Shown here: one piece after another, positions 10,827 through 39,709 of the stretch
How the letters are laid out: every line of letters begins with the position of its first letter
Position numbering within the stretch: the stretch's first letter is position 1
IMG/VR virus record: IMGVR_UViG_3300020219_000001
Direction: 5' to 3' (one strand)
DNA length: 64,000 nucleotides
From: an uncultured virus (IMG/VR IMGVR_UViG_3300020219_000001)
Lineage: Duplodnaviria; Heunggongvirae; Uroviricota; Caudoviricetes
The notes under the pieces: generated by a model
What the model saw: only the letters and a program-made list of their open reading frames with translations
What the model was told of the DNA's origin: nothing
The model's database searches: none
Made by a program: the position numbers and the translations under genes

Positions 10827-11122
10827 TGAGCAAGTTCTCTGTGGCTGCCTTCCACGCCATCAAACGGAAGCCCTTCGTCGAGTTGCCGAAGACCACGCTC
10901 TATACAGCGAAAGGGCCGGCTGTCGGAACCATCTGGCTCGACGTAACGCAAAAGTCTCGTGAAACGCTGACTGTCATCGACGCTGACAGACTAATGGTCC
11001 ATTACGACAACGATAGTTGTGATGACCTGCAAGACTTCCACGAACAAGTGTCCGACGGACGTTTAGTCCTCGTCGGTGTTCGACAACCAGTATTGACGTA
11101 TACCCCGAAGGTGTTCTCTTGA
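10826..11122 (+). CDS. Hypothetical protein
   Basis: Coupled to both neighbours. Confidence 0.55.
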   Translation: MSKFSVAAFHAIKRKPFVELPKTTLYTAKGPAVGTIWLDVTQKSRETLTVIDADRLMVHYDNDSCDDLQDFHEQVSDGRLVLVGVRQPVLTYTPKVFS

Positions 11123-12219
11123 GTACGACCATTGTTGAAGTCTTGAAGATCGACGCTGTCGATCCCCATCCGAATGCCGATCGCTTAGAGATCGCGACGA
11201 TCCGCGGCGCGAAGACCGTGGTGACCAAGGATAAGTACACGGCAGGCGACTACGTCGTGTTCTTCCCGCCGGACATCCTGATTCCGGAGAGCCTCGGCCG
11301 CGAGCTAGGCGTTAGCAACTACCTGAAGCACGCTGAGTTCCCTGGGGACATCGTGAAGACGCCTTGCCGAGTGGCGGCCGCTCGCGTCCGCGGGCAAGCC
11401 TCCTTCGGCTTCGTGGTCCCGGTGGACGAAGTGTTCTTCGGCGAAGACGCTCAGATGGTCGTGGCGAACGCCGACGTGACGGCGTACTTCAACGCCCACA
11501 AGTACGTGCCGCCGGTCCAGGTCAGCGAGGGTGCCCGCCGCAAGGAGCATCCCGGCTTTCCGCGATACACCGACATCGACAACTACTACCGCTACCCGGA
11601 TGCGATCCCTGAAGGAACGCCGGTCCGGATCACCGAGAAGATTCACGGCCGCAACTGCCGTGTCGGGCTTCTCCGAGGTGAGAGCGGTGACTGGGAGTTC
11701 TTCGCAGGGTCGCACAACTTCCCTCGCAAGCGCCCAGCGGAAGATGCAAAGCCTTGCATCTACTGGGAGCCGCTCGAAGAGAAGACCGTGCTCGACTTGC
11801 TGACCGGCCTGTGCAACGAAGAGAACAGCGTCGTCTTGTACGGCGAACTGTACGGCCAAGGCTGTCAGGACCTCGACTATGGCGTGCGGCAAGGCCAACG
11901 TGAGTTCCGAGTCTTCGACATCCTGTTCAATGGCCGCTTCATGGACTGGGATGTTGTCCGAGACGTGTGCAAGTTGCACGGCGTCGAGACGGCTCCGCTG
12001 TTGTACGAGGGTCCGTTCTCGATCGCGAAGATGTCCGAACTGACGGATGGCCCCACGACGATCGGCACGCCCCGGGCGAAGTTCAAAGGTCGCGAGGGCG
12101 TCGTGGTGACGCCCCTGACGGAGTCGTACTCCGACATCCTTGGCGGCCGCATGATCCTAAAGTCGGTCTCGGCCGACTACCTCGACCGCAAGGGCGCTGA
12201 GGACAACGGAGAAATCTAA
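11119..12219 (+). CDS. RNA ligase, Rnl2-like DRB0094 family
   Basis: N-terminal HPNADRLE OB-type module; TEKIHG, YGE, FDI, REGVV and ILKS nucleotidyltransferase motifs. Confidence 0.92.
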   Translation: MSTTIVEVLKIDAVDPHPNADRLEIATIRGAKTVVTKDKYTAGDYVVFFPPDILIPESLGRELGVSNYLKHAEFPGDIVKTPCRVAAARVRGQASFGFVVPVDEVFFGEDAQMVVANADVTAYFNAHKYVPPVQVSEGARRKEHPGFPRYTDIDNYYRYPDAIPEGTPVRITEKIHGRNCRVGLLRGESGDWEFFAGSHNFPRKRPAEDAKPCIYWEPLEEKTVLDLLTGLCNEENSVVLYGELYGQGCQDLDYGVRQGQREFRVFDILFNGRFMDWDVVRDVCKLHGVETAPLLYEGPFSIAKMSELTDGPTTIGTPRAKFKGREGVVVTPLTESYSDILGGRMILKSVSADYLDRKGAEDNGEI

Positions 12220-27276: not shown

Positions 27277-27731
27277 TGCAAGCTGGAATCGCACCTGACG
27301 CGAGTCGCTCTGACGACCGCACCCTAGTGATGGAGTACAACCCGTGTAACGGCGGTTTGGAAATCTATCGTCGCACACCGTTGGACCACTACTCCTACAC
27401 GATGGAACGTATCTGTTTCGTCAAGGACAACTACCTGTCGCCGAGTTATGGAGTCTTCGCCAAGGTCAAGCAACTCGAATTCTACTCCGGCCGCACGGTT
27501 GAGCAATCGGATTACATGAAGGTCGAACGGTTTCATCTCCACGACACTCCAGTAGTGCGCAGCATCATCGAGCAGATCGACAACCTCCAATGCGGGAGGC
27601 TCTCTGACTCGTTCAACGAGACGCTCAAGGCGCTGAATGTGAACGACCAGGAACTCAAGGCGTTGGTTCCGCTGCCCAACGGCGACCTGTTCTTCTTGCC
27701 CGTCAAGCAGCTTCGCGTGGAGCCACGCTAG
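27276..27731 (+). CDS. Hypothetical protein
   Basis: Coupled on both sides. Confidence 0.55.
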   Translation: MQAGIAPDASRSDDRTLVMEYNPCNGGLEIYRRTPLDHYSYTMERICFVKDNYLSPSYGVFAKVKQLEFYSGRTVEQSDYMKVERFHLHDTPVVRSIIEQIDNLQCGRLSDSFNETLKALNVNDQELKALVPLPNGDLFFLPVKQLRVEPR

Positions 27732-28375
27732 TGAAAGTAGTAGCCATCTCCGATCTCCACGGCTACCTGCCGAAGATCGAACCGTGTGACCTCCTGCTAA
27801 TCGCCGGAGACATCTGCCCGTACCAGAATCATAACCTTCTGTTCCAGAAGATGTGGCTGAACACGACGTTCCGCGACTGGCTCGGCACGGTGCCTGCGAA
27901 GTACGTGGTGGCCATCCCGGGCAACCACGATCTGATCTTCGAGCAGAAGCCACACGAGGTTCCGACACTGCCCTGGTTCTGCTTGATCGACAACTGGGTC
28001 GAGGTGGATGGCGTCACGATCTACGGCATCCCTTGGCAGCGCCGCTTCTTCGACTGGGCCTTCAACCTGGACGAACCGGAACTCGACAAGAAGTACGAAG
28101 CCATCCCTGACTGCGACATCATCGTCTCCCACGGTCCGCCGTTTGGGTACGGTGACCAGGCACCTCGCGGCCGTGGCTTCGAGAACGTCGGCTCGAAGGT
28201 GTTCCTGCGGAAGATCGAAGAGATCAAGCCGTGGCTAGTGGTGTTCGGCCACATCCACGAAGGCGTTGGTGAGTGGATCATCAACGACGACAAGACCTTG
28301 CTCGCGAACGTCACGCACGTGAACGGCAAGTATGAACCGGTTCATCGCCCGCGGATGTGGGGAATGGGAGTTTAG
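27731..28375 (+). CDS. Metallophosphoesterase (MPPED/239FB-like)
   Basis: SDLHG, AGDI, GNHD, SHGPP and FGHIHE. Confidence 0.9.
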   Translation: MKVVAISDLHGYLPKIEPCDLLLIAGDICPYQNHNLLFQKMWLNTTFRDWLGTVPAKYVVAIPGNHDLIFEQKPHEVPTLPWFCLIDNWVEVDGVTIYGIPWQRRFFDWAFNLDEPELDKKYEAIPDCDIIVSHGPPFGYGDQAPRGRGFENVGSKVFLRKIEEIKPWLVVFGHIHEGVGEWIINDDKTLLANVTHVNGKYEPVHRPRMWGMGV

Positions 28376-29182
28376 ATGAAGACGCACTTTACCGCTGACC
28401 CGCACATCGCCCACGAGAACATTCTCGCGATCACGTTCCGGAAGTTCTCCTCGATCGAGGAGCACAACTACACGATGATCGAGAACATCAACAAGCAGGT
28501 GGCGAAGAACGATCGGCTCTACATCCTCGGCGACGTGGTGTGGGGAATGGAAGGATCGTGGATGGCCCAGATCAGGTGCAAGAACAAGCATCTGATCTAC
28601 GGCAACCACGACAAGGCCATGCTCGGCAAGTTCTTCGTCTCATGTTGTGAGACGGCCGAGATCAAGTTGGAGCTTCCGCCGCGATGGGCGACCGAGACCG
28701 AGAAGTCGGCTCGCGTCTACCTGAACCACTACGCCAATGCGTACTGGCCAGGTTCGCACCGTGGCAGCCTGCATCTCTATGGCCACACGCACGCACAACG
28801 TGAGGTGACGCTCTCGATGTGCTTCCCGGGCCGGCGGTCGATGGACGTGGGCGTGGATGCCGCGAAGATCACGCTCGGCGAGTACCGGCCGTTCACCGAC
28901 GACGAGGTCCTAGACCTCCTGCTCGCGCAGCCGGGGCACGACAACGTGGACTACTACAAGCGTCTCCAGGACGATCCGGAGTATGCGAAGTTCGTCTACG
29001 ACCAGTGGCCGTGGCCGAAGCACACGTCCGGCCGCACCCCGGACCTTGACCCAGTGGCCGCGGACGAGTTCTACAACACGCAACTCGGGGTGCCTTGGGA
29101 GCATCAGGAAAGGTCTGATTACGACCTTGAAAATATGCGTAAGGAGTTCCGCGAACGCCTGTATGGAAAAGCCGATGGATGA
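28376..29182 (+). CDS. Calcineurin-like phosphoesterase
   Basis: ADPH..H, LGDV, GNHD, LYGHTH and DVGVD. Confidence 0.88.
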   Translation: MKTHFTADPHIAHENILAITFRKFSSIEEHNYTMIENINKQVAKNDRLYILGDVVWGMEGSWMAQIRCKNKHLIYGNHDKAMLGKFFVSCCETAEIKLELPPRWATETEKSARVYLNHYANAYWPGSHRGSLHLYGHTHAQREVTLSMCFPGRRSMDVGVDAAKITLGEYRPFTDDEVLDLLLAQPGHDNVDYYKRLQDDPEYAKFVYDQWPWPKHTSGRTPDLDPVAADEFYNTQLGVPWEHQERSDYDLENMRKEFRERLYGKADG

Positions 29183-29933
29183 GCTTCAGCTTGAACCCGG
29201 CTGGCTTGAGAGGGAGATCAAGCGGACGAACGACTACGTGAACAACACAACACTCCGAGAAGTATTCGATATGAACCCACCCGCACACAAAGAACGCCAG
29301 CCCTACGTCTCGATCGACCTGGAGACGACTGGTCTTGATCCCGACAACTGCCAGATTCTTGAGATCGGGGCCGTGATCGACGACTGGCGCACGCCGCCGC
29401 ACGAGCTACCGGTCTTCCACGCCTTCTGCTGCCACCATCACATCTACGGTGAGCCGTATGCGTTGCAGATGAACCACAAGATCATCAAGAAGATCGCGGA
29501 CAAGAAGGACCCGAACGATCCGACCGCTTTGTTCCTCGACCCATACTGCATGATGCACCAGTTGGGGGAATTCCTTCTCCGGAACGGATTCACACAGGAT
29601 GGCAACAAGATCAAGGTCACCGCAGCCGGCAAGAACTTTGGCTCGTTCGACCTTCAGTTCCTCAGACGCCTCGGTTTCGATCGCGTTGAGTTCCGCCACC
29701 GGTTCATTGACGCTGGTGCGTTGTTCTATAACCCGGCGATCGACGACATGCCACCGAACACCGAGGAGTGTTTGAAGCGGGCCGGCATCCCGGTGAACCT
29801 CACTCACGAGGCGGTGCCGGATGCAATCGACGTGGTGAAGCTCATCCGCTACGTGGCCGCCGTCCGCGGTGAGTACGGGTCAATGGAGATTCGCCGGGAC
29901 TCGGCTGAAGTCGCCCCATTCCGAGGCTTCTAA
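29175..29933 (+). CDS. DEDDh 3'-5' exonuclease (DnaQ/oligoribonuclease-like)
   Basis: IDLETTGL...ILEIG, N..SFD and HEA..DA. Confidence 0.85.
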   Translation: MDELQLEPGWLEREIKRTNDYVNNTTLREVFDMNPPAHKERQPYVSIDLETTGLDPDNCQILEIGAVIDDWRTPPHELPVFHAFCCHHHIYGEPYALQMNHKIIKKIADKKDPNDPTALFLDPYCMMHQLGEFLLRNGFTQDGNKIKVTAAGKNFGSFDLQFLRRLGFDRVEFRHRFIDAGALFYNPAIDDMPPNTEECLKRAGIPVNLTHEAVPDAIDVVKLIRYVAAVRGEYGSMEIRRDSAEVAPFRGF

Positions 29934-30725: not shown

Positions 30726-31110
30726 GCAAGTCATCGTCATCCGCAAGGACCTCAACATGCGGAAGGGCAAGATGTGCGCCCAAGCATGTCACGCTGCCCG
30801 CGGCTTCATTGAGTCACAGCTTCAGTCGATCCTCGACGCCGACCGGACAAACGTCGCCGGTGTGTACATCGACCCCGAAGTGAAGCAGTGGTTCCGAGAA
30901 GGGACCACGACGATCACCGTGGGCGTCGATAGCGAGAAGGAGCTTCTCGACATCTACAGCCAAGCGAAGGGTGCCGGACTGAAGGCGCACATCGTCCTCG
31001 ACGAGGGCCGCACTGAGTTCAACAACCAGCCGACGCACACCGCCGTGGCCATCGGCCCTTGCTACGACTGGCAAATCGACAAGATCACTGGGGAGTTGAA
31101 ACTGCTGTGA
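30718..31110 (+). CDS. pth2: Peptidyl-tRNA hydrolase, Pth2 family
   Basis: KQVIVIRKDLNMRKGKMCAQACHA, DEGRTEF, T.TAVAIGP and ITGELKLL. Confidence 0.95.
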   Translation: MVKQVIVIRKDLNMRKGKMCAQACHAARGFIESQLQSILDADRTNVAGVYIDPEVKQWFREGTTTITVGVDSEKELLDIYSQAKGAGLKAHIVLDEGRTEFNNQPTHTAVAIGPCYDWQIDKITGELKLL

Positions 31111-31658
31111 AATACTTCCTCGACACCGAGTTCCACGAAGACGGTAACACGATCGACTTGATCTCGATCGGCATCGTCTGTGAGGATGGCCGCGAATACT
31201 ACGCCATCAGTAACGAGTGCGACTACAGCCGCATCTGGACGCTGGATAGCTGTGAATGGCTACGTCAGAACGTGATGTGCTACATCGGCAGCGACGATAC
31301 CGCCGGCATCTGGGTCAGCCGAGAGACCATCCGCCGCGAGATCGCCGACTTCATTGGTGCGGACCCGAAGCCAGAGTTCTGGGCGTACTACGCTGACTAC
31401 GACTGGGTCGCGTTCTGCCAACTGTGGGGACGAATGATCGACCTCCCTCGACACTTCCCAATGTTCTGCCGTGACATCCGACAACTGCTCGACGTGTACG
31501 GCAAGGTGTATGTGACGCAGATGAACGAGCACCACGCTCTGTTCGACGCTCGCCACGATCGCGACATGTTCAACAACCTCGTGGAGCGGCAGAAGATTCT
31601 GATCGCTCAAGACCCCGAGCGACTCGTCAACAAACTCGTACAGGCATTGCAATGTTAA
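31107..31658 (+). CDS. 3'-5' exoribonuclease, RNase AS-like DEDD family
   Basis: FLDTEF...LISIGIV..DGREYY, YADYDWV and HHALFDA. Confidence 0.85.
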   Translation: MKYFLDTEFHEDGNTIDLISIGIVCEDGREYYAISNECDYSRIWTLDSCEWLRQNVMCYIGSDDTAGIWVSRETIRREIADFIGADPKPEFWAYYADYDWVAFCQLWGRMIDLPRHFPMFCRDIRQLLDVYGKVYVTQMNEHHALFDARHDRDMFNNLVERQKILIAQDPERLVNKLVQALQC

Positions 31659-33501: not shown

Positions 33502-34001
33502 ATGAAGAAGTATCTACTGTTTTGCGGCGCTAACTTCTACGCGAGTGGTGGTTGGCGAGATTTCCAGAACAGCTTCGACAGTCTCGAAGATGCGATGATG
33601 GCCGAGAAGTTCTGGTACGCTTCCCACGACAAGGCTAAGGAGGAGCCGATTGCTTCCGACTGGTGGCACATCGTGAACGGTGAGACCGGTGAGATCGTCT
33701 ATCGCCACAAAGGGAGCTACAGCGGCTAATGGAAGTCCTCGAAATTCTCGACAAAGCCGGCCCGTGGCGTCTCACACGAGTCCGCTTCCAAGGAAGTGAC
33801 AGAGAAAGCTTTGCCGCACTGGTGGAGGTTGAGGGGAAGCTCGTCTTCCCTGACTGTGGCTGGGGATGCGAGAACTGCGAGGTCTGCCTAGGCTGCGCCC
33901 GCAAGCTCACCTTCAGCATCCATGATGAGCCGCTGAAGTTCAACCTTGATCCTTACGCCCTCTGTCACAACTTCGAGCACCACGTTCCCAAAGAGAGCTA
34001 G
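33502..34001 (+). other. Two small hypothetical ORFs (33502-33729, 33729-34001)
   Basis: GGAG RBS; TAATG coupling. Confidence 0.5.
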
Positions 34002-35005
34002 GCGGCGTCCTCGTCCGTCGCCTTCCGCAACGCCTCCCGAAGATGGTCCCCTCGCTTGTGGACCTTCGAGTAGACCTTCTCCAACATCCTGAGGTCCTTG
34101 TGACCCATGAGCTTCGCCAGCGTGATGAGGTCCACGCCCCGCATGATCGCCTCTGTGGCGAACACGTGACGGATGGTGTAGGGACAGACGTGGAAGCCCA
34201 GCTTCGGACGCAGGCGGAAGCACCGCGAGTTGAGCGGTCCGCGGGTCCAGGGGTTGCCGTTCGTGTCCCGGAAGATCGGTCCCTTGGGCCACTTCAGCGC
34301 CAAGCGTTGCGTGATCTCGAACGCCTTCTTGTTCAGGTGGACGACTCGTTCCTCCTTCTCCCCTTTGGCCTCTGCCCAGGGAATGACCCAGCACCTCTCC
34401 TTGCGATCGAAGTGCCGCGCCTCGACCCAGCGGGCCTCCTGCGGCCGGCACCCGGTCTCCCTGAGGATCGTGATGATGTCCAGGAACTCCTTGTCCTTGA
34501 TGGCACCCACGAGCTTCTTGAACTGCTCCGGCGTCAGGTAGACATCTCGCGCGACCTTGGCCGGTCGCTCCAGCCCGGCAAGCGGGGTCTTGTCCAGCCG
34601 GCCGGACTTGACCGCCCAGTTCATCACCCGCTGGACGCACCGCATGGCCCCGTGAACCGTGTTCGGGTTCTTGGCCTTCAGCCCTTTGATGACCCAACGC
34701 TCCACGTGGTAGGGCTTGAGCGCCTTGATCTGAAGGTTCCCGATGTACTGATCGAAGGACTTCAGGTAGAAGCGGTACCACTCGTAGGTCGAGTCCTTGT
34801 GCTTCGCCTTCGAGTAGTCCAGGAACTCGGCGAGAAGCTCGACGACCGTCAAACCTTTTTCCTTCTTAGGCTTCGCGCCGGCCATCAGGGCGTAGAACTT
34901 CTCCCACGCTTTGTCGCGATCGGGGTCGAGCCGGACCTGCTTGCCGGCGACCGTCGTGTACCAGCAGGAATGGGTCTTCTTGTAGAACGGCTTCGGTTGG
35001 CGCAT
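33998..35005 (-). CDS. int: Tyrosine recombinase / phage integrase
   Basis: Catalytic residues in TGCRPQE (R), K, YTIRH, LMGH and VY; N-terminal arm-binding-like RQPKPFY..CWY; GGAGG RBS. Confidence 0.95.
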   Translation of the reverse strand: MRQPKPFYKKTHSCWYTTVAGKQVRLDPDRDKAWEKFYALMAGAKPKKEKGLTVVELLAEFLDYSKAKHKDSTYEWYRFYLKSFDQYIGNLQIKALKPYHVERWVIKGLKAKNPNTVHGAMRCVQRVMNWAVKSGRLDKTPLAGLERPAKVARDVYLTPEQFKKLVGAIKDKEFLDIITILRETGCRPQEARWVEARHFDRKERCWVIPWAEAKGEKEERVVHLNKKAFEITQRLALKWPKGPIFRDTNGNPWTRGPLNSRCFRLRPKLGFHVCPYTIRHVFATEAIMRGVDLITLAKLMGHKDLRMLEKVYSKVHKRGDHLREALRKATDEDAA

Positions 35006-35051
35006 AGGGTCCTCCAAGGAAACGTAGAACATTTCCCTAGACCCGCATCCA

Positions 35052-35315
35052 TACCGGGACAGAATACCGGGACGAGCCGGGACAACGATCAACGATGTCG
35101 CCGTAAGTCCTTACTGCGTAAGAGCGGGAGACGAGGATCGAACTCGCGACATCCAGCTTGGGAACCAAACGCTCTACCATTGAGCTACACCCGCGGATCA
35201 GCGTTTTTCCCCGTGTTTTCTAGGGTTCCAGCATTTTAGACTAACACGGCGGCGGGTGTCAAATTCATTCGGTTTCACTCCGTTTCACGGGGCTTACCGG
35301 GACAATACCGGGACA
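35052..35315. mobile_element. Putative attP site with arm-type direct repeats
   Basis: (TA)CCGGGAC(A) at 35052, 35065 and 35077, and at 35295 and 35306, flanking a tRNA-Gly core next to int. Confidence 0.8.
35123..35194 (-). tRNA. Chimeric / pseudo tRNA-Gly(CCC), attP core
   Basis: Full 72-nt layout with loop TTCCCAA, but the anticodon stem TTTGG/GCTGG pairs poorly and the acceptor stem has a T:T mismatch. Confidence 0.8.
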
Positions 35316-35502: not shown

Positions 35503-36549
35503 TTGACCAGCATCGCCGCCCACAACCCGCACAACCGTTACGACCATGCAGAAATTATTTCCGCTCAAGCGATTGCGGATGAACGGAAATTAACCACGCC
35601 GGCAGCCCTGTTCAACTGTGGTTCTACACAAACTGGCCCACCCTTCGCTACTGCCAAGATCGGCGAACCTACGAGTTCAGTTCGTTTTGACGAGCGGCAC
35701 TCAGCGGATTTTCCGACAACCGACACACGCAAGGAGGGGGTGAATCGGGATAAGGTTGTTCGGGAGGGCGGACCAATGAACGAGCAAACTGATGAACAAC
35801 TGATGGGCTTGTACCGTGACGGTAACAGGCAAGCGTTCGACCTCCTGGTTGAGCGATACCACGAGCCGTTAGTCGCATACGTCAAGCGACGTGCCGTCCG
35901 CAATGAGCACGCTGCGGAAGACATCGTCCAACGAGTTTGGATGCGAGTCTTCAAGCATCACCTGTCGTTCGACCTTAAACGGACTTTCCGAGCGTGGCTT
36001 TATTCTATGGCTGCGAGGCTCTCGATCAACGAGAGGCGGGATACCCGCAAGTTCCGTGATATGGGGGAGGAAGTCTTCGAGGAGGTTCTCACCCAAGACG
36101 ACCAGGTCGAGGTCCTTGAGGATGAGGTTGAGAAGAAGGAAACGATCGACCAGGCCATGCGTGTCCTGCGAGCACTGCCGAAGGAATACCGTTCGGTCCT
36201 TCAACTGTCCGTGATGCAAGGATTCACCGTGCGTCAGACTTGCCCACTATTGGACATCGCGATTGGTACCGTGTTCAATCGTACCCACGAGGGTATCCGA
36301 CGGCTACGTGAGGGCATGGAACAGGGCGTGGTGACGAGTGTCGTCTCGGACGCGCAGGACGACTGGCAACTGTCTACCATCCGCGACATCGTGGACCGGC
36401 TTCCCCACGTGGAGTACGGCAGCGTCGAACGTGTGCTGTTTAGCGAAACTGCGGATGATAGCGATTTGCACATCTTCGGCTCCTTCGTCCGCCGACTCGC
36501 GGGAGAAATTCTTTCTCCCGAGTTGAACAACTTGAAGGCTGCCGTGTAA
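35503..36549 (+). CDS. ECF-type sigma factor with C-terminal extension (alternative start 35776)
   Basis: TDEQLM...GN..AF..LVERY, AEDIVQ, F.AWLY and region 4 L..LP..YR...IGTV..R. Confidence 0.88.
   Translation: MTSIAAHNPHNRYDHAEIISAQAIADERKLTTPAALFNCGSTQTGPPFATAKIGEPTSSVRFDERHSADFPTTDTRKEGVNRDKVVREGGPMNEQTDEQLMGLYRDGNRQAFDLLVERYHEPLVAYVKRRAVRNEHAAEDIVQRVWMRVFKHHLSFDLKRTFRAWLYSMAARLSINERRDTRKFRDMGEEVFEEVLTQDDQVEVLEDEVEKKETIDQAMRVLRALPKEYRSVLQLSVMQGFTVRQTCPLLDIAIGTVFNRTHEGIRRLREGMEQGVVTSVVSDAQDDWQLSTIRDIVDRLPHVEYGSVERVLFSETADDSDLHIFGSFVRRLAGEILSPELNNLKAAV
36524..36549 (+). promoter_or_regulatory. Class II promoter TGAACA-N14-GTGTAA upstream of the Y-RNA/Ro60 locus
   Basis: Lies in the last codons of the ECF sigma gene, 12 nt before the first RNA unit. 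Confidence 0.75.
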
Positions 36550-36561
36550 CAAGTATAGAAC

Positions 36562-36620
36562 GCGAGCCGAATGCTGAGGGTTACCGGCTAACAATACCCC
36601 TTAGCAACTCACTTGCTCGC
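36562..36620 (+). ncRNA. Y-RNA-like unit 1
   Basis: GCGAGC/GCTCGC end stem; CGAA opposite ACTCACTT; 9-bp TGCTGAGGG/CCCTTAGCA; then TTACC; upstream of Ro60. Confidence 0.8.
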
Positions 36621-36625
36621 ACTTT

Positions 36626-36752
36626 GCACAGTGTAGCTCAACGGATAGAGCACCAGTAATTACGGGTCTCCAATCAACTCGCCCGCTCGCGGGCCGGCTG
36701 AAGACCCTTATCAGGGAACTGGTGGTAGCGGGTTCGACTCCCGCCACTGTGC
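36626..36752 (+). ncRNA. tRNA-scaffolded, strand-swapped Y-RNA unit 2
   Basis: Acceptor GCACAGTG/CACTGTGC, canonical D and T arms, stem CCAGT/ACTGG enclosing a 60-nt loop with GC-CGGC-N9-TTATC. Confidence 0.8.
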
Positions 36753-36756
36753 CTGG

Positions 36757-36822
36757 GGAACGGGTCGTAGTCTGTGGTTTATCTTTTGGTGATTTCCGCC
36801 ACGGACAATTTTTATCTGTTCC
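36757..36822 (+). ncRNA. Y-RNA-like unit 3
   Basis: GGAACGGGT/ATCTGTTCC, CGTA, GTCTGTGG/CCACGGAC and TTATC. Confidence 0.7.
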
Positions 36823-36828
36823 GCTTGA

Positions 36829-36962
36829 AGACGCTGTAGCTCAGTTGGTAGAGCACCTTAACTGGTCATCAACCTTTCGCCTACTCCAAATGGAGCGGGC
36901 CGAATGGTGATCGTTTTCTCCTTTTAAGAGGGTGGTCGCAGGTTCAAATCCTGCCAGCGTCT
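36829..36962 (+). ncRNA. tRNA-Lys(UUU)-scaffolded, strand-swapped Y-RNA unit 4
   Basis: AGACGCTG/CAGCGTCT acceptor; tRNA-Lys-like D and T arms; retained CTTTTAA loop; 60-nt insert with GC-CGAA-N9-TTTTC. Confidence 0.8.
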
Positions 36963-36964
36963 CT

Positions 36965-37051
36965 GCCGAGAGTCGAAGAACGAGGATTACCGCAATCGCA
37001 AGGCCGCTTGAAACGGCCTCAAAACGTCCTCGCTCACAACTTATTCTCGGC
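36965..37051 (+). ncRNA. Y-RNA-like unit 5
   Basis: GCCGAGAGT/ATTCTCGGC, CGAA, CGAGGA/TCCTCG, TTACC and ACAACTT. Confidence 0.75.
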
Positions 37052-37072
37052 CTCTTTCACCTGGAGTCTTTC

Positions 37073-38650
37073 ATGTCTGTCTCGCAGTACGCACGTAACA
37101 TGTCCGCTCGCAGTGTCCCGCAAACGGAAGCGTTGCCGGGAATGGTCAAGAACAATGGTGGCGGCTACAGCTACGGCGTAGACTGCTGGACTCGCTTGGA
37201 TCGCTTCTTGATCCTCGGTTGCGAGGGCGGTACGTACTACGCATCGGAGCGCAAGCTCACGATCGAGAGCGCTGCTTGCGTACTCGAATGTGCGAAGGCG
37301 GACATGAAACGGACCGTTGCTCGCATCGTCGAGATCAGCGAGAGCGGCCGTGCTCCGAAGAACGATCCGGCGATCTTCGCCCTAGCGTTGTTGAGTGCCC
37401 AGACGAATTCGGCTGAAGCGTTGGCGGCCGTCAATCAGGTCTGTCGCATCGGCACGTACTTCTTTCAATACATCGAAGCGGTCACGCAGTTCCGCGGCTG
37501 GGGCCGCGGCCTCCGGCGTGCGGTCGCCAACTGGTACCTGTCGAAGGACGCCGACGCCTTGGCGTACCAGGTCACGAAGTACCGGCAGCGGGGAGGTCGG
37601 TCGCACCGCGACAACCTCCGGCAATCACACCCGTTCCCGAAGACGGCCGGTCACAAGGACGTGTTCCAATGGATGGCCCAGCCGGAGAAGTGGAAGGCGT
37701 CCAAGCGGGCCGGCACGCGACTCCTGGTCACGTTTGAGGAAGCTCAGACCGCCACGACCAAGCAACTGGTGAAGATGATCGTTGAAGAGGGTCTCGTCTG
37801 GGAGCACATCCCGACCGAGAAGCTCAACGAGGTGGCCATCTGGGAAGCGCTGCTCCAGAACATGCCGTTGACGGCGATGATCCGGAACCTCGGCAAGATG
37901 TCCTCCATCGGGATGTTCAAGCCGCTGTCCAATGCCGAGAACCTGGTTGTCCAAGCACTCGGTGACCAGGGGCGGCTGAAGAAGGCCCGCATTCATCCGT
38001 TCAACGCCCTGGTCGCATCGACCACCTACAACGGTGGCCAAGGGATCAAGGGCAGCCTCAAGTGGGATGTGAACCGAAACATCTCGGCCGCATTGGAAGA
38101 GGCGTTCTACAAGGCGTTCGACTACGTCGAGCCATCCGGGGCACGAGTCGTCTACGGTGTGGACTGCTCGGCGTCGATGACCTGGCACGAGATCAACGGC
38201 ACTCGCATCACGCCGCGAATCGCGGCCGCCTGTCTCGCGATGGTCGGCCTCCGCTGCGAACCGCGGACCTTCGTCCACGGCTTCTGTGGCGACTTCGTGG
38301 ACCTCGGCATGACGAAGACCGATCGCTTGGACGCCGTCGTCCAGAAGATCAACAACACCCGGGCCGGCAGCACCAACGTCGCCGTCCCGGTCGAGTACGC
38401 ACTGAAGCATGGGATCGAGGCGGATGCCTTCGTCGTCTTGACGGACAACGAGACGAACAGCGGTAAGGAGCACCTCACTTCCTGCCTCGAACGCTACCGC
38501 AAGAAGACCGGCATCAAGGCTCGACTTGTGGTAGTAGGCATGGAGGTCAACGACTTCAGCAGCGCCGATCCGAAGGACCCGTTGCAGATGGACATCTGCG
38601 GGTTCGACTCGGCGGCCCCTTCGATCATCGGGGACTTCATCCGCCAATAG
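37073..38650 (+). CDS. rsr: Ro60 (TROVE + vWA) RNA-binding protein
   Basis: NNGGGY, RLDRFLILG.EGGTYY, GWGRGLRRAV..WY, KYRQR.G.SHRD, MPLTAMIRNL, RIHP, vWA DCSASM, TDNET and GFD. Confidence 0.96.
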   Translation: MSVSQYARNMSARSVPQTEALPGMVKNNGGGYSYGVDCWTRLDRFLILGCEGGTYYASERKLTIESAACVLECAKADMKRTVARIVEISESGRAPKNDPAIFALALLSAQTNSAEALAAVNQVCRIGTYFFQYIEAVTQFRGWGRGLRRAVANWYLSKDADALAYQVTKYRQRGGRSHRDNLRQSHPFPKTAGHKDVFQWMAQPEKWKASKRAGTRLLVTFEEAQTATTKQLVKMIVEEGLVWEHIPTEKLNEVAIWEALLQNMPLTAMIRNLGKMSSIGMFKPLSNAENLVVQALGDQGRLKKARIHPFNALVASTTYNGGQGIKGSLKWDVNRNISAALEEAFYKAFDYVEPSGARVVYGVDCSASMTWHEINGTRITPRIAAACLAMVGLRCEPRTFVHGFCGDFVDLGMTKTDRLDAVVQKINNTRAGSTNVAVPVEYALKHGIEADAFVVLTDNETNSGKEHLTSCLERYRKKTGIKARLVVVGMEVNDFSSADPKDPLQMDICGFDSAAPSIIGDFIRQ

Positions 38651-38701
38651 CGGGTGCTCAAACTGTCGGCCGGTAGACACATTCATCAAGGGAACAACGA
38701 C

Positions 38702-39709
38702 GTGACATTGATTCGTGAAGTGACAGTCCGAGTGAAGGGTAAGACTCCTCTTACCATTCACAACAATCAACCTGCCGCAGAGTTTCAGTCGGCGATTAAC
38801 CAACTGATGGATCGGCGGACGCCCCTCGTCGGCGAGGCGAGAGACATGCTGCGATGGCTACGCTATCAGGCTGTGTGCTTTCACATCAGGGACGGGCGTC
38901 CCTACATGAGTAGGAATGCCTTGCTCCTACCGTTCATTCATGCCACGGACAGGACAGAAGAGAAAGACTTCCTGAAGAGCATTCTCTCGGTGGCAGAGGC
39001 AGTCCCAATCCAGCACGACGGTCCTTCGACGGTCAAAGAACTGTTCCGAAGCGAGTTCCATAAGCAGGTTGTCTACTCACCGGAATTGGGCGAAATCACC
39101 ATCCCTGTGGTGTACGACTGGGGTTTCACGTTTGTGTTACAGTTCGAGTGCGGGCGTATTAAAACTCCCGATCCGAAGCTGACCGAAGAGGACTTCATCC
39201 GCGGCATGTTGTACGCCGGATCGAAGACCAAAAGCTTCGGCGGCATCCGCCATTCGAGCTTTGGCCAATTCGACATCACCTCCATCGTGTTTGGGCCGCC
39301 AATCGAGAAGCGGACCCCTGCGGCCGCTCGCAAATCATTCGGGTTAATCCTGGATACATCGGAAGTAGCCACTGCCCCGAGCGAGGTGGTTCCAGAGCCG
39401 CCGGTTCAGCCAACAGTGATCGACTTGGTTGAGGCTCCTCTCAGCAAGGTCATGCCGATGATCCAGAAGGACCCACGGCTCGAACCCGACGTACAGAAGC
39501 GATTGTTGGATGCCCTGAACGAGTTGACCGCCATCTCGGTGCTGGGAGACCACAAGCTGATTCGACGCGCTGTGTGCGAAACCCTGAACAAGCACGGCAT
39601 CAAGAGTTTCAAGTTCCAGGATTGGAAGGCACACAACCTCGACTGCTTGATGCGGAACCGAAGAAACAAGAAGATCAGGGACGCCGAAAAAGCCAAGGGG
39701 GTTGCATGA
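38702..39709 (+). CDS. Divergent solo RAMP/Cas7-like protein with C-terminal extension
   Basis: V.VKG.TPL.IHN, DGRPY, DGP...ELF, P...DW.F.F.L and a C-terminal G-rich loop AG...FGGIR..FGQF.I; pattern recognition only. Confidence 0.55.
   Translation: MTLIREVTVRVKGKTPLTIHNNQPAAEFQSAINQLMDRRTPLVGEARDMLRWLRYQAVCFHIRDGRPYMSRNALLLPFIHATDRTEEKDFLKSILSVAEAVPIQHDGPSTVKELFRSEFHKQVVYSPELGEITIPVVYDWGFTFVLQFECGRIKTPDPKLTEEDFIRGMLYAGSKTKSFGGIRHSSFGQFDITSIVFGPPIEKRTPAAARKSFGLILDTSEVATAPSEVVPEPPVQPTVIDLVEAPLSKVMPMIQKDPRLEPDVQKRLLDALNELTAISVLGDHKLIRRAVCETLNKHGIKSFKFQDWKAHNLDCLMRNRRNKKIRDAEKAKGVA

Follow-up and report, generated by a model that had tools for sequence, protein, structure and literature searches.

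The window analyzed here is a stretch of 64,000 nucleotides (nt) from an uncultured virus (IMG/VR record IMGVR_UViG_3300020219_000001; Caudoviricetes). It is phage-like in content, encoding a family A DNA polymerase, a ribonucleotide reductase, ThyX, PhoH, a DNA methylase, an integrase and an RNA ligase, and comparison with the DNA of cultured phages returned one weak match, within the Ro60 gene of a Microbacterium phage. On its plus strand, the gene of an ECF-type (extracytoplasmic function) sigma factor is followed by an array of structured RNA elements and then by a gene for the RNA-binding protein Ro60 (Rsr). The array consists of five units spaced 2-7 nt apart, where an earlier interpretation made from the letters and open reading frames (the sequence-only reading) had spoken of four. 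Units 1, 3 and 5 are rod-like, while Units 2 and 4 are shaped like tRNAs. The main subject of this study is Unit 4, which lies on the same strand as Ro60, its end 111 nt short of the start codon, and hence falls within the 4 kb of a Ro60 gene that is used as a criterion for YrlA, the tRNA-mimicking Y RNA of bacteria. The findings described below indicate that Unit 4 is probably a Ro60-bound tRNA-mimic Y RNA of the YrlA kind, in which the parts follow each other in the order of a tRNA and the Ro60-docking part forms a side arm. The coordinates of all features are given in Table 1.

Table 1. Genes and RNA units of the Ro60 locus, and the parts of Unit 4.
Feature	Position	Strand	Evidence and remarks
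RNA ligase gene, 25 kb from Unit 4	11119..12219	+	Pfam RNA_ligase 3.3e-22 and PHA02142 OB domain
ECF-type sigma factor gene, upstream of the Y array	35503..36549	+	protein family search
Unit 1, classical rod-like Y-RNA stem, ends paired	36562..36620	+	GCCGAATG and GGTTACC motifs; fold z = -3.64, 1/200 shuffles as good
Unit 2, tRNA-order Y RNA, type A	36627..36752	+	model R1 109.3 bits; 5-bp anticodon stem 36653-57 / 36718-22
Unit 3, classical rod-like Y-RNA stem	36757..36822	+	fold z = -3.34
Unit 4, tRNA-order Y RNA, type B (cloverleaf with Ro60-docking side arm)	36830..36962	+	Rfam tRNA 50.4 bits; R1 111.9 bits, R2 115.2 bits
Unit 4, acceptor stem	36830-36836 / 36955-36961	+	7/7 pairs
Unit 4, D arm (stem 36839-42 / 36851-54)	36839..36854	+	A14, G15, G18 and G19 present; YrlA consensus matched
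Unit 4, split anticodon stem nt 27-28 (CC)	36856..36857	+	pairs with GG 36931-36932
Unit 4, Y arm, 60 nt	36858..36917	+	comparative boundaries 36857/36858 and 36917/36918
Unit 4, rest of anticodon arm: CUC (nt 29-31), loop CTTTTAA, GAGGG (nt 39-43, 36928-32)	36918..36932	+	loop 36921-27, anticodon TTT 36923-25
Unit 4, variable loop TGGTC (5 nt) and T arm GCAGG / TTCAAAT / CCTGC	36933..36954	+	sequence, tRNA model, covariation
Unit 5, rod-like Y-like stem in the Ro60 leader	36965..37051	+	fold -35.5 kcal/mol, z = -2.93, 1/200 shuffles as good
Ro60 (Rsr) gene, 525 aa	37073..38650	+	Pfam TROVE 8.3e-47, vWA_Ro60 1.2e-49; PHROG 850 RNA-binding protein

The Rfam tRNA model (RF00005) spans Unit 4 from end to end (36830-36962, plus strand), with a score far above its gathering score of 29 (E 7.6e-8). 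Unit 4 thereby passes the Rfam score of the tRNA class, but it is not a contiguous cloverleaf of ordinary length, and ARAGORN calls no tRNA in the native sequence of 133 nt. This sequence folds at -53.9 kcal/mol (z = -5.0), and none of 200 shuffles was as good. Its discriminator nucleotide is a T (36962); the CCA end is not encoded and could be added after transcription. The sequence-only reading had proposed that Unit 4 hides a tRNA-Lys(UUU) which appears once 36860-36919 are deleted. Indeed, ARAGORN calls tRNA-Lys(ttt) with the named anticodon stem in the shortened sequence, so that Unit 4 does hold a complete cloverleaf of this type. The exact deletion is not special, as 174 of 234 nearby deletions are also called as tRNAs, many of them as Lys(ttt); the insert length of 60 nt is upheld, while the comparative data move its boundaries to 36858-36917. 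The local hairpin TTCTC / CTTTTAA / GAGGG suggested for the undeleted RNA can be formed and is used by a second, weaker Rfam tRNA alignment (36892-36962, 25.5 bits). With respect to its isotype, no diagnosis could be drawn from BLAST comparison of the Unit 4 body with E. coli genomes: the 3' part is nearest to an E. coli prophage tRNA-Arg (at most 89% over 37 nt), and the 5' part matches tRNA-Lys only at E = 5. Judged by its sequence, the body appears not to be specifically derived from tRNA-Lys, and its D and T arms fit the YrlA consensus.

In the structure derived from comparison with relatives, CC (36856-57) and CUC (36918-20) together face GAGGG to give an all-Watson-Crick stem of 5 bp, and the 7-nt Lys-type loop is intact. 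Between nt 28 and 29, the 5' strand of this stem is interrupted by the Ro60 arm, which creates a three-way junction there. This arm consists of a linker, an 8-bp upper stem (36863-70 / 36906-13), a small internal loop, a Ro60-type bulged helix (36876-82 / 36897-36904) of 4 + 3 pairs with a bulged C, which holds GCCGAATG at 36899, and a 4-bp apical hairpin (36884-95) that closes it; the junction motif GUUUUC, which reads GUUAUC in relatives, lies at 36913-18. Because nt 42-43 continue nt 39-41 without a break, the two short helices would stack on each other below the D stem and form a normal anticodon stem, with the Ro60 arm projecting sideways. Modelled in this way, Unit 4 would be a complete L-shaped look-alike of a tRNA with an intact Lys(UUU)-type anticodon arm of 5 bp and 7 nt. 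The side arm is a putative Ro60-binding module, with the GNCGAAN0-1G bulged helix near its tip. This motif has been related to Ro60 recognition and likened to GGUCCGA, a sequence in a bulged helix with which frog Ro60 makes contact (PMC4201824; this and the other papers cited by identifier are drawn on for the parts of them that were available). The motif, the bulged helix and the location of the whole family beside Ro60 genes bear out the link between Unit 4 and the adjoining Ro60 gene that had been suggested earlier.

To compare Unit 4 with related elements, loci around other Ro60 genes were collected. Among 8000 proteins scored, 7840 were Ro60 homologs with E <= 0.001, the best at 63% identity. 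A scan of viral contigs with the single protein found no close relative, whereas alignment-based scans succeeded, and the loci were retrieved with an alignment of 25 homologs. A Ro60 relative is encoded by 211 of 224 stretches from viral contigs, by 589 of 600 from metagenome contigs and by 591 of 600 from genome contigs; 80 loci of each set were kept. At gathering scores, Rfam models gave 34 tRNA matches in the first 20 viral loci (L001-L020), six of which are 118-135 nt long, and no YrlA match in these loci or in the window. The six long matches together with Units 2 and 4 served as the seed of the covariance model R1, which matched 160 sites in the viral, 153 in the metagenome and 222 in the genome set. 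The best 150 matches per set were aligned and examined (150/160, 150/153 and 150/222), with a filter for a length of at least 95 nt and at least 6/7 acceptor, 5/5 T and at least 3/4 D pairs, which retained 51 of 164 long elements from viral and metagenome contigs and 36 of 91 from the genome set. In all three kinds of contig, R1 matched long tRNA-order elements on the strand of the Ro60 gene. The genome contigs that carry them are labelled Chloroflexia, Armatimonadota, Planctomycetota, Verrucomicrobiota and others, suggesting that the layout is not confined to phages, although some of these contigs may be prophages. A Ro60 homolog was also found in 364 phage records, and Gordonia phage Cashline has a type-B-like element (as defined below) directly upstream of its Ro60 gene (L241:2252-2395, 54.9 bits).

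The well-formed elements fall into several forms. In type A, which includes Unit 2, the anticodon stem is a continuous helix of 5 bp, and the Ro60 arm takes the place of the anticodon loop (18/51 in the viral and metagenome sets, 3/36 in the genome set). In type B, which includes Unit 4, a 7-nt loop with U33 and a purine at position 37 is kept (20/51 and 14/36). The stem of type B elements is composed of nt 27-28, sometimes 27-29, located right after the D arm, and of nt 29-31 after the GUUAU of the junction motif, with nt 39-43 as partners. The remaining elements (13/51 and 19/36) have other forms, some with the junction motif directly joined to the variable loop. There is also a short form of about 95-110 nt in which the Ro60 arm replaces the entire anticodon arm (e.g., L217:1103-1211, L219:997-1099, L193:971-1078 and L004:1376-1470). 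The CTTTTAA loop of Unit 4 recurs in the unrelated arrays L117, L185 and L194, and in L193, outside the filters. In several Chloroflexia and Armatimonadota contigs (L185, L217, L219, L193, L231), ordinary tRNA genes stand in rows; a number of tRNA-order Y RNAs whose anticodon loops differ come after them, and then Ro60. The Chloroflexia elements of L194, L185, L219 and L217 have one common anticodon stem, while their loops differ.

A number of observations weigh against the reading of Unit 4 as a Y RNA with a split anticodon stem. The split-stem structure has a folding energy of -46.7 kcal/mol, whereas the minimum-energy fold prefers an 11-bp hairpin with the loop shifted by one, and the split-stem pairs have low ensemble probabilities, e.g., 0.08 for the pair 87-103; thermodynamic folding cannot decide among local, long-range and split anticodon stems. 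Besides covering the best-scoring matches of each set, the type B counts relied on the split-stem criterion itself, and at least two members are doubtful, namely L051, whose loop resembles the type-A GGGA motif, and L178, with 4/5 Watson-Crick pairs. Moreover, the arrays of the nearest Ro60 relatives sampled (L081 and L001/L082; 57% protein identity) contain the sigma gene and a Unit-2-type element that is followed by rod-like Y stems. These closest arrays lack any tRNA-shaped element corresponding to Unit 4, and so say nothing on whether true orthologs keep the Lys loop. No RNA run containing 36300-37400 was listed. RNA contigs from four runs (80% likeness) cover mainly the tRNA-like ends of Unit 4 and represent ordinary tRNAs of other organisms; the apparent joints in them hold foreign anticodon arms between the two sides, and they have no bearing on splicing or expression. 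Finally, binding of Ro60 by Unit 4 is predicted from motifs and position.

To be independent of the split-stem criterion, the stem was examined in an unbiased manner, by selecting elements only for pairs 29-31/39-41, U33 and a purine at position 37, which gave 26 distinct elements out of 87. In 25 of these 26, both 27.43 and 28.42 are Watson-Crick pairs with the dinucleotide after the D arm, while the local dinucleotide satisfies both pairs in none. Pair 28.42 is C-G in 12 and U-A in another 12 of the elements. When linkers were permuted (n=2000), a mean of 7.0 and a maximum of 16 elements satisfied both pairs, and no permutation reached 25. The lone failure is an element of 183 nt whose D region is probably misparsed. 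Among 15 type B sequences, compensatory changes were found in 7/7 pairs of the acceptor stem, 4/5 of the T stem and 5/7 of the upper stem; paired cells amounted to 99% in the acceptor stem, 100% in the T stem and 89% in the Ro helix, which is conserved. Overall pairing was 88-90%, compared with 37-50% when the partners were slid by 1-3 columns. A second covariance model that includes the split stem (R2) matched elements with such a stem outside its seed (L004:697, L066:1075, L034:5134, L009:1332, L010:2176 and L061:2220).

What the hairpin before the T arm stands for is a separate question. An anticodon-like hairpin with at least 4/5 pairs, U33 and a purine at position 37 occurs at the same place in 15 of 39 related long elements, against a background of 12 in 1934 offsets within the inserts. 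The 31 distinct type B hairpins show 20 different anticodons. We read the hairpin as an anticodon arm because it is enclosed by pairs 27.43 and 28.42 and followed by a normal variable loop of 4-5 nt. Alternatively, it could be the variable-arm-like stem-loop "V" of YrlA, with a neutral loop sequence in which the Lys-like anticodon has no anticodon role. The diversity of the anticodons is in line with this, and they include AUU, which is not known to be used by natural tRNA-Asn; the small hairpins with loops of about 7 nt that follow the same motif in rod-like Y units, including a CTTTTAA loop in the last unit of L001, also fit. In published models, the hairpin of YrlA that is equivalent to this one appears as a variable arm (PMC4201824), which likewise speaks against our interpretation. 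However, together with the two linker pairs the hairpin makes up exactly a 5-bp stem and a 7-nt loop before the normal variable loop, whereas in the case of a variable arm, pairs 27.43 and 28.42 would not surround both it and the Ro arm. In addition, C32 is present in 18 and A38 in 27 of the 31 hairpins, although neither position had been selected for. We therefore regard a mere "V" hairpin as a possible but rather unlikely explanation, and retain the anticodon arm.

Two further features of the anticodons were considered. Anticodons with U36 are found in 16 of 31 type B elements compared with 103 of 357 ordinary tRNAs of the same loci, a modest difference that may reflect shared descent and on which we do not build. 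An anticodon common to a type B element and an ordinary tRNA of its locus was found in 2 of 34 cases, one of which is an ARAGORN call within the chimera itself, and the flanks are too short for this count to carry meaning.

A complete cloverleaf might also mean that Unit 4 is a real tRNA with a retained arm, which is CCA-tailed and lysylated and either translates or serves as a spare protected by Ro60. The full set of tRNA core nucleotides and the 7-bp acceptor stem would suit such an RNA, and YrlA of Mycobacterium smegmatis is cleaved by RNase P and receives CCA in vivo (PMC4201824). Among the 34 type B elements, however, the discriminator is a pyrimidine in 19, and CCA is encoded in four. 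The discriminator of Unit 4 is a U, whereas the identity rules of tRNA-Lys call for A73. Bacterial tRNAs for Ser and Leu need a long variable arm, but the Ser- and Leu-type members have short variable loops. An arm of about 60 nt on the anticodon stem would also be expected to clash with the tRNA sites of the ribosome. That Unit 4 works as a real tRNA with its arm in place is accordingly very unlikely in our view.

The sequence-only reading had gone further in suggesting that the arm is cut out and the halves are rejoined, for instance by the RNA ligase of the phage, into a working tRNA-Lys of 73 nt. Precise removal of the arm does give a perfect cloverleaf, and the phage encodes an RNA ligase whose relatives adjoin Ro60 in two loci. 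Against this, the arm shows the conservation and covariation of a functional Ro60 module, and the type A relatives, among them Unit 2, have no anticodon loop that splicing could restore. The insert sits in the stem (28/29) and not in the anticodon loop, and inspection of the junction, without a formal scan, showed no bulge-helix-bulge, that is, no pair of 3-nt bulges 4 bp apart. Moreover, 60 nt is far below the length needed for a group I intron. The discriminators and short variable loops mentioned above tell against a working tRNA as a product, too. We consider excision and rejoining highly improbable, and Unit 4 is better understood as a Y RNA that keeps its arm.

The proposed partnership with the RNA ligase was retained only as a weak link, as the gene is far from Unit 4 and its relatives directly follow Ro60 in 2 of 240 loci. 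These relatives (about 31% identity) lie on a viral contig (L064:4092-5171) and on a Verrucomicrobiota contig (L221:3236-4180). Linkage of rsr with rtcB is known, and the ligases of L064 and L221 belong to a different ligase family. A functional link between the ligase of the window and Ro60 is possible.

Another reading of the array starts from bacterial YrlA, which is circularly permuted. The Rfam YrlA model (RF02553) aligns to 36695-36885 with 31.6 bits, taking the T arm and one strand of the Ro stem from Unit 2 and the D arm and the other strand from Unit 4. Taken at face value, this alignment would describe a classical permuted YrlA in which Unit 3 forms a long acceptor-like hairpin in the middle, with Unit 2 supplying the Ro strand and T arm on one side and Unit 4 the D arm and Ro strand on the other; counted by hand, Unit 2's 3' acceptor strand can form 5/7 pairs with the 5' strand of Unit 4. 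The score falls far short of the gathering score of 69, however, and the acceptor stems pair perfectly within the units (7/7 in Unit 4, 8/8 in Unit 2) and covary in tRNA order in the relatives, while each Ro arm closes on itself. That the transcript is a permuted YrlA thus seems remote. Because their acceptor strands pair within the unit and each Ro arm is closed, Units 2 and 4 are best described as YrlA-like RNAs in unpermuted order, and the model joins the T arm of one to the D arm of the other because a permuted model meets tRNA-order units. For Unit 2, an origin from tRNA-Arg(ACG) had been suggested on the basis of its D loop (GGATA) and a TTACG remnant. This was not borne out, as the ortholog in L081 keeps the GGATA D loop and differs at the TTACG spot.

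The motifs of the remaining units are those of Y RNAs. A scan found the exact GNCGAAN0-1G motif in Units 1, 4 and 5 and a near-form in Unit 3, while the counterpart in Unit 2, GGCTGAAG, does not match. The GUUAYC-like motif was found by the scan in Units 1, 3 and 5, and the variants CTTATC (Unit 2) and GTTTTC (Unit 4) were read by eye. In Unit 5, the motifs read GTCGAAG and GATTACC, and an inner hairpin of 6 bp carries a loop of 7 nt. Nematode stem-bulge RNAs are regarded as relatives of Y RNAs, and their model (RF01656) gives a weak match to Unit 3 (24.6 bits, gathering score 38, E 0.013). In every unit, rod-like or tRNA-shaped, the upper stem is followed by a GGUUAUC-like motif (window 36579, 36777 and 36985, and the arrays of L081 and L001), which often opens a small hairpin with a loop of about 7 nt. 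The UUAUC of animal Y RNAs and nematode stem-bulge RNAs resembles this motif. It probably corresponds to the conserved YUAY of Chen et al. (PMC4201824).

The order of sigma gene, Y array and Ro60 is kept in L001/L082 and L081. Downstream of Ro60, a gene for 351 aa (38654-39709) starts four bases past the last base of the Ro60 gene; no Pfam or PHROG family was assigned to its product, and no relative was found in the 240 fetched loci. Upstream of the array, two metallophosphoesterase genes, an RNase T-like exonuclease gene and a gene for an Rv2179c-like 3'-5' exoribonuclease (named RNase H in PHROG) lie at 27731-29933 and 31059-31658. Located a few kb from the array, their products are possible candidates for partners in RNA-end processing. 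On the minus strand, a tRNA-like gene (35123-35194, Rfam 51.5 bits), for which ARAGORN reads a four-letter anticodon, adjoins the integrase gene, which is on the minus strand as well (33998-35092). Its position beside a tyrosine integrase suggests a tRNA copy at an attachment site or an unusual tRNA.

These findings allow a mechanism to be proposed. No sigma-70-type promoter and no intrinsic terminator were found in 36300-37200, and the five-unit array may be transcribed together with its flanking genes. Following the precedent of YrlA in M. smegmatis, RNase P and 3' tRNA-processing enzymes would cut at Units 2 and 4, and the same cuts would free the rod-like Units 1, 3 and 5, which are so closely spaced. 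Ro60 would then dock on the side arm of Unit 4, as suggested by the Ro60 of phage phiLo, which forms an assembly with the host PNPase and binds Y-like RNAs whose genes lie upstream of its own (PMC12135203). The exposed tRNA body and the Lys-type loop could engage tRNA-recognising proteins, either as a tether or as a competitive decoy, e.g., for anticodon nucleases. By analogy, a decoy or tether role for Unit 4 is plausible; a specific role of the anticodon loop as decoy or bait for a nuclease is a tentative proposal and on balance unlikely. Still more speculatively, and rather improbably in our view, the Ro60 loci of many phages and bacteria might encode complete tRNAs, each with its own anticodon and a grafted Ro60-docking arm, which would act as anticodon-specific baits held by Ro60 and would offer a given anticodon loop, Lys UUU in the case of Unit 4, to defence nucleases that cleave tRNAs or to other proteins that read anticodons. 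A partner exonuclease or RNA ligase could act alongside, and the tRNA-order form may be the ancestor of permuted YrlA through tandem copies that shifted the transcript boundaries.

No earlier account of Y RNAs in tRNA order, or of an anticodon stem into which a Ro60 arm is grafted, was found in the literature searched, as far as the texts were available. While tRNA-mimicking Y RNAs are already known, the unpermuted layout and the position of the Ro60 arm in the anticodon stem are new here. The layout with an open acceptor stem is widespread, and a full anticodon arm with varied anticodons is found in about a third to two fifths of the well-formed elements. Because ARAGORN misses tRNA-order Y RNAs and their YrlA score is below the Rfam threshold, they will be skipped in annotation or labelled as odd tRNAs. 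In a preprint on PhageMaP, it was remarked that some tRNA genes beside the Ro60-like gene of phage Bas63 may be Y RNAs. The layout makes it testable whether Ro60 particles engage readers of anticodons, such as defence nucleases, modification enzymes and synthetases. It also bears on a possible origin of YrlA from tRNA genes, as suggested by Wang and colleagues.

Among known systems, YrlA is closest to Units 2 and 4. Published YrlA is a circularly permuted tRNA mimic composed of a T arm, a closed acceptor hairpin and a D arm, with the ends of the RNA forming the Ro60 stem (PMC4201824; 10.1101/312249), and it is described in the available text as having neither a free CCA end nor an anticodon loop (10.1101/312249). 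The purpose of the tRNA-like part of bacterial Y RNAs was left open in the account of Chen et al., as far as available (PMC4201824). Unit 4 shares with YrlA (RF02553) the strand of Ro60 and a distance from it of no more than a few hundred nt, the GNCGAAN0-1G motif, near-identical D and T arms, a tRNA-like core and, ahead of the T arm, a YUAY-type motif with a hairpin after it. The differences are that Units 2 and 4 follow the tRNA order (acceptor, D, Ro arm, T, acceptor), their acceptor stem being open and their Ro stem loop-closed, and that Unit 4 additionally keeps a full anticodon arm. In classical Y RNAs, the bulged helix for Ro60 is near the ends of the RNA, whereas Unit 4 has it close to the tip of an arm that is closed, which is what a circular permutation would be expected to give. 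A Y RNA processed by cutting its closed hairpin would likewise have an open 7-bp acceptor stem, a tRNA-like 3' end and an attached Ro60 module, but cutting gives an RNA in two pieces, while Unit 4 is encoded as one continuous RNA in tRNA order. Unit 4 appears to work like YrlA but departs from two curated features of the family, the permuted topology and the Rfam threshold.

Other Y RNAs are more distant. Yrn1 of Deinococcus radiodurans (PMC4201824) possesses a T arm, and the hairpin that lies between its D-like and T elements has been modelled as an "anticodon arm", but in the parts described its Ro60 stem takes the place of the acceptor stem, the loop has 6 nt and the D arm is incomplete. 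Yrl1 and Yrl2 of phage phiLo (PMC12135203) are, like the units of the window, Y-like RNAs located directly upstream of a phage Ro60 gene and carry a CGAA motif; they are stem-bulge-stem rods similar to Units 1, 3 and 5, and no tRNA-shaped part is described for them in the text available.

The closest parallel to the proposed decoy is found among phage tRNAs. The PARIS nuclease AriB targets the tRNAs Lys(UUU), Thr(UGU) and Asn(GUU), and phage T5 encodes tRNAs of these three types (10.1101/2025.02.04.636281). A phage-encoded anticodon arm of the Lys(UUU) type is common to T5 and Unit 4, and Lys, Thr and Asn loops account for 7 of the 31 distinct type B loops (9 with AUU), an overlap with the PARIS targets that is a lead only. 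The T5 tRNAs that act against PARIS are, in the source as available, ordinary functional tRNAs without a Ro60 arm. Hughes et al. have proposed that YrlA, through its tRNA-like domain, could competitively inhibit an anticodon nuclease (PMC7790460), and an element with a real anticodon loop, such as Unit 4, would suit the role of a nuclease inhibitor better than published YrlA.

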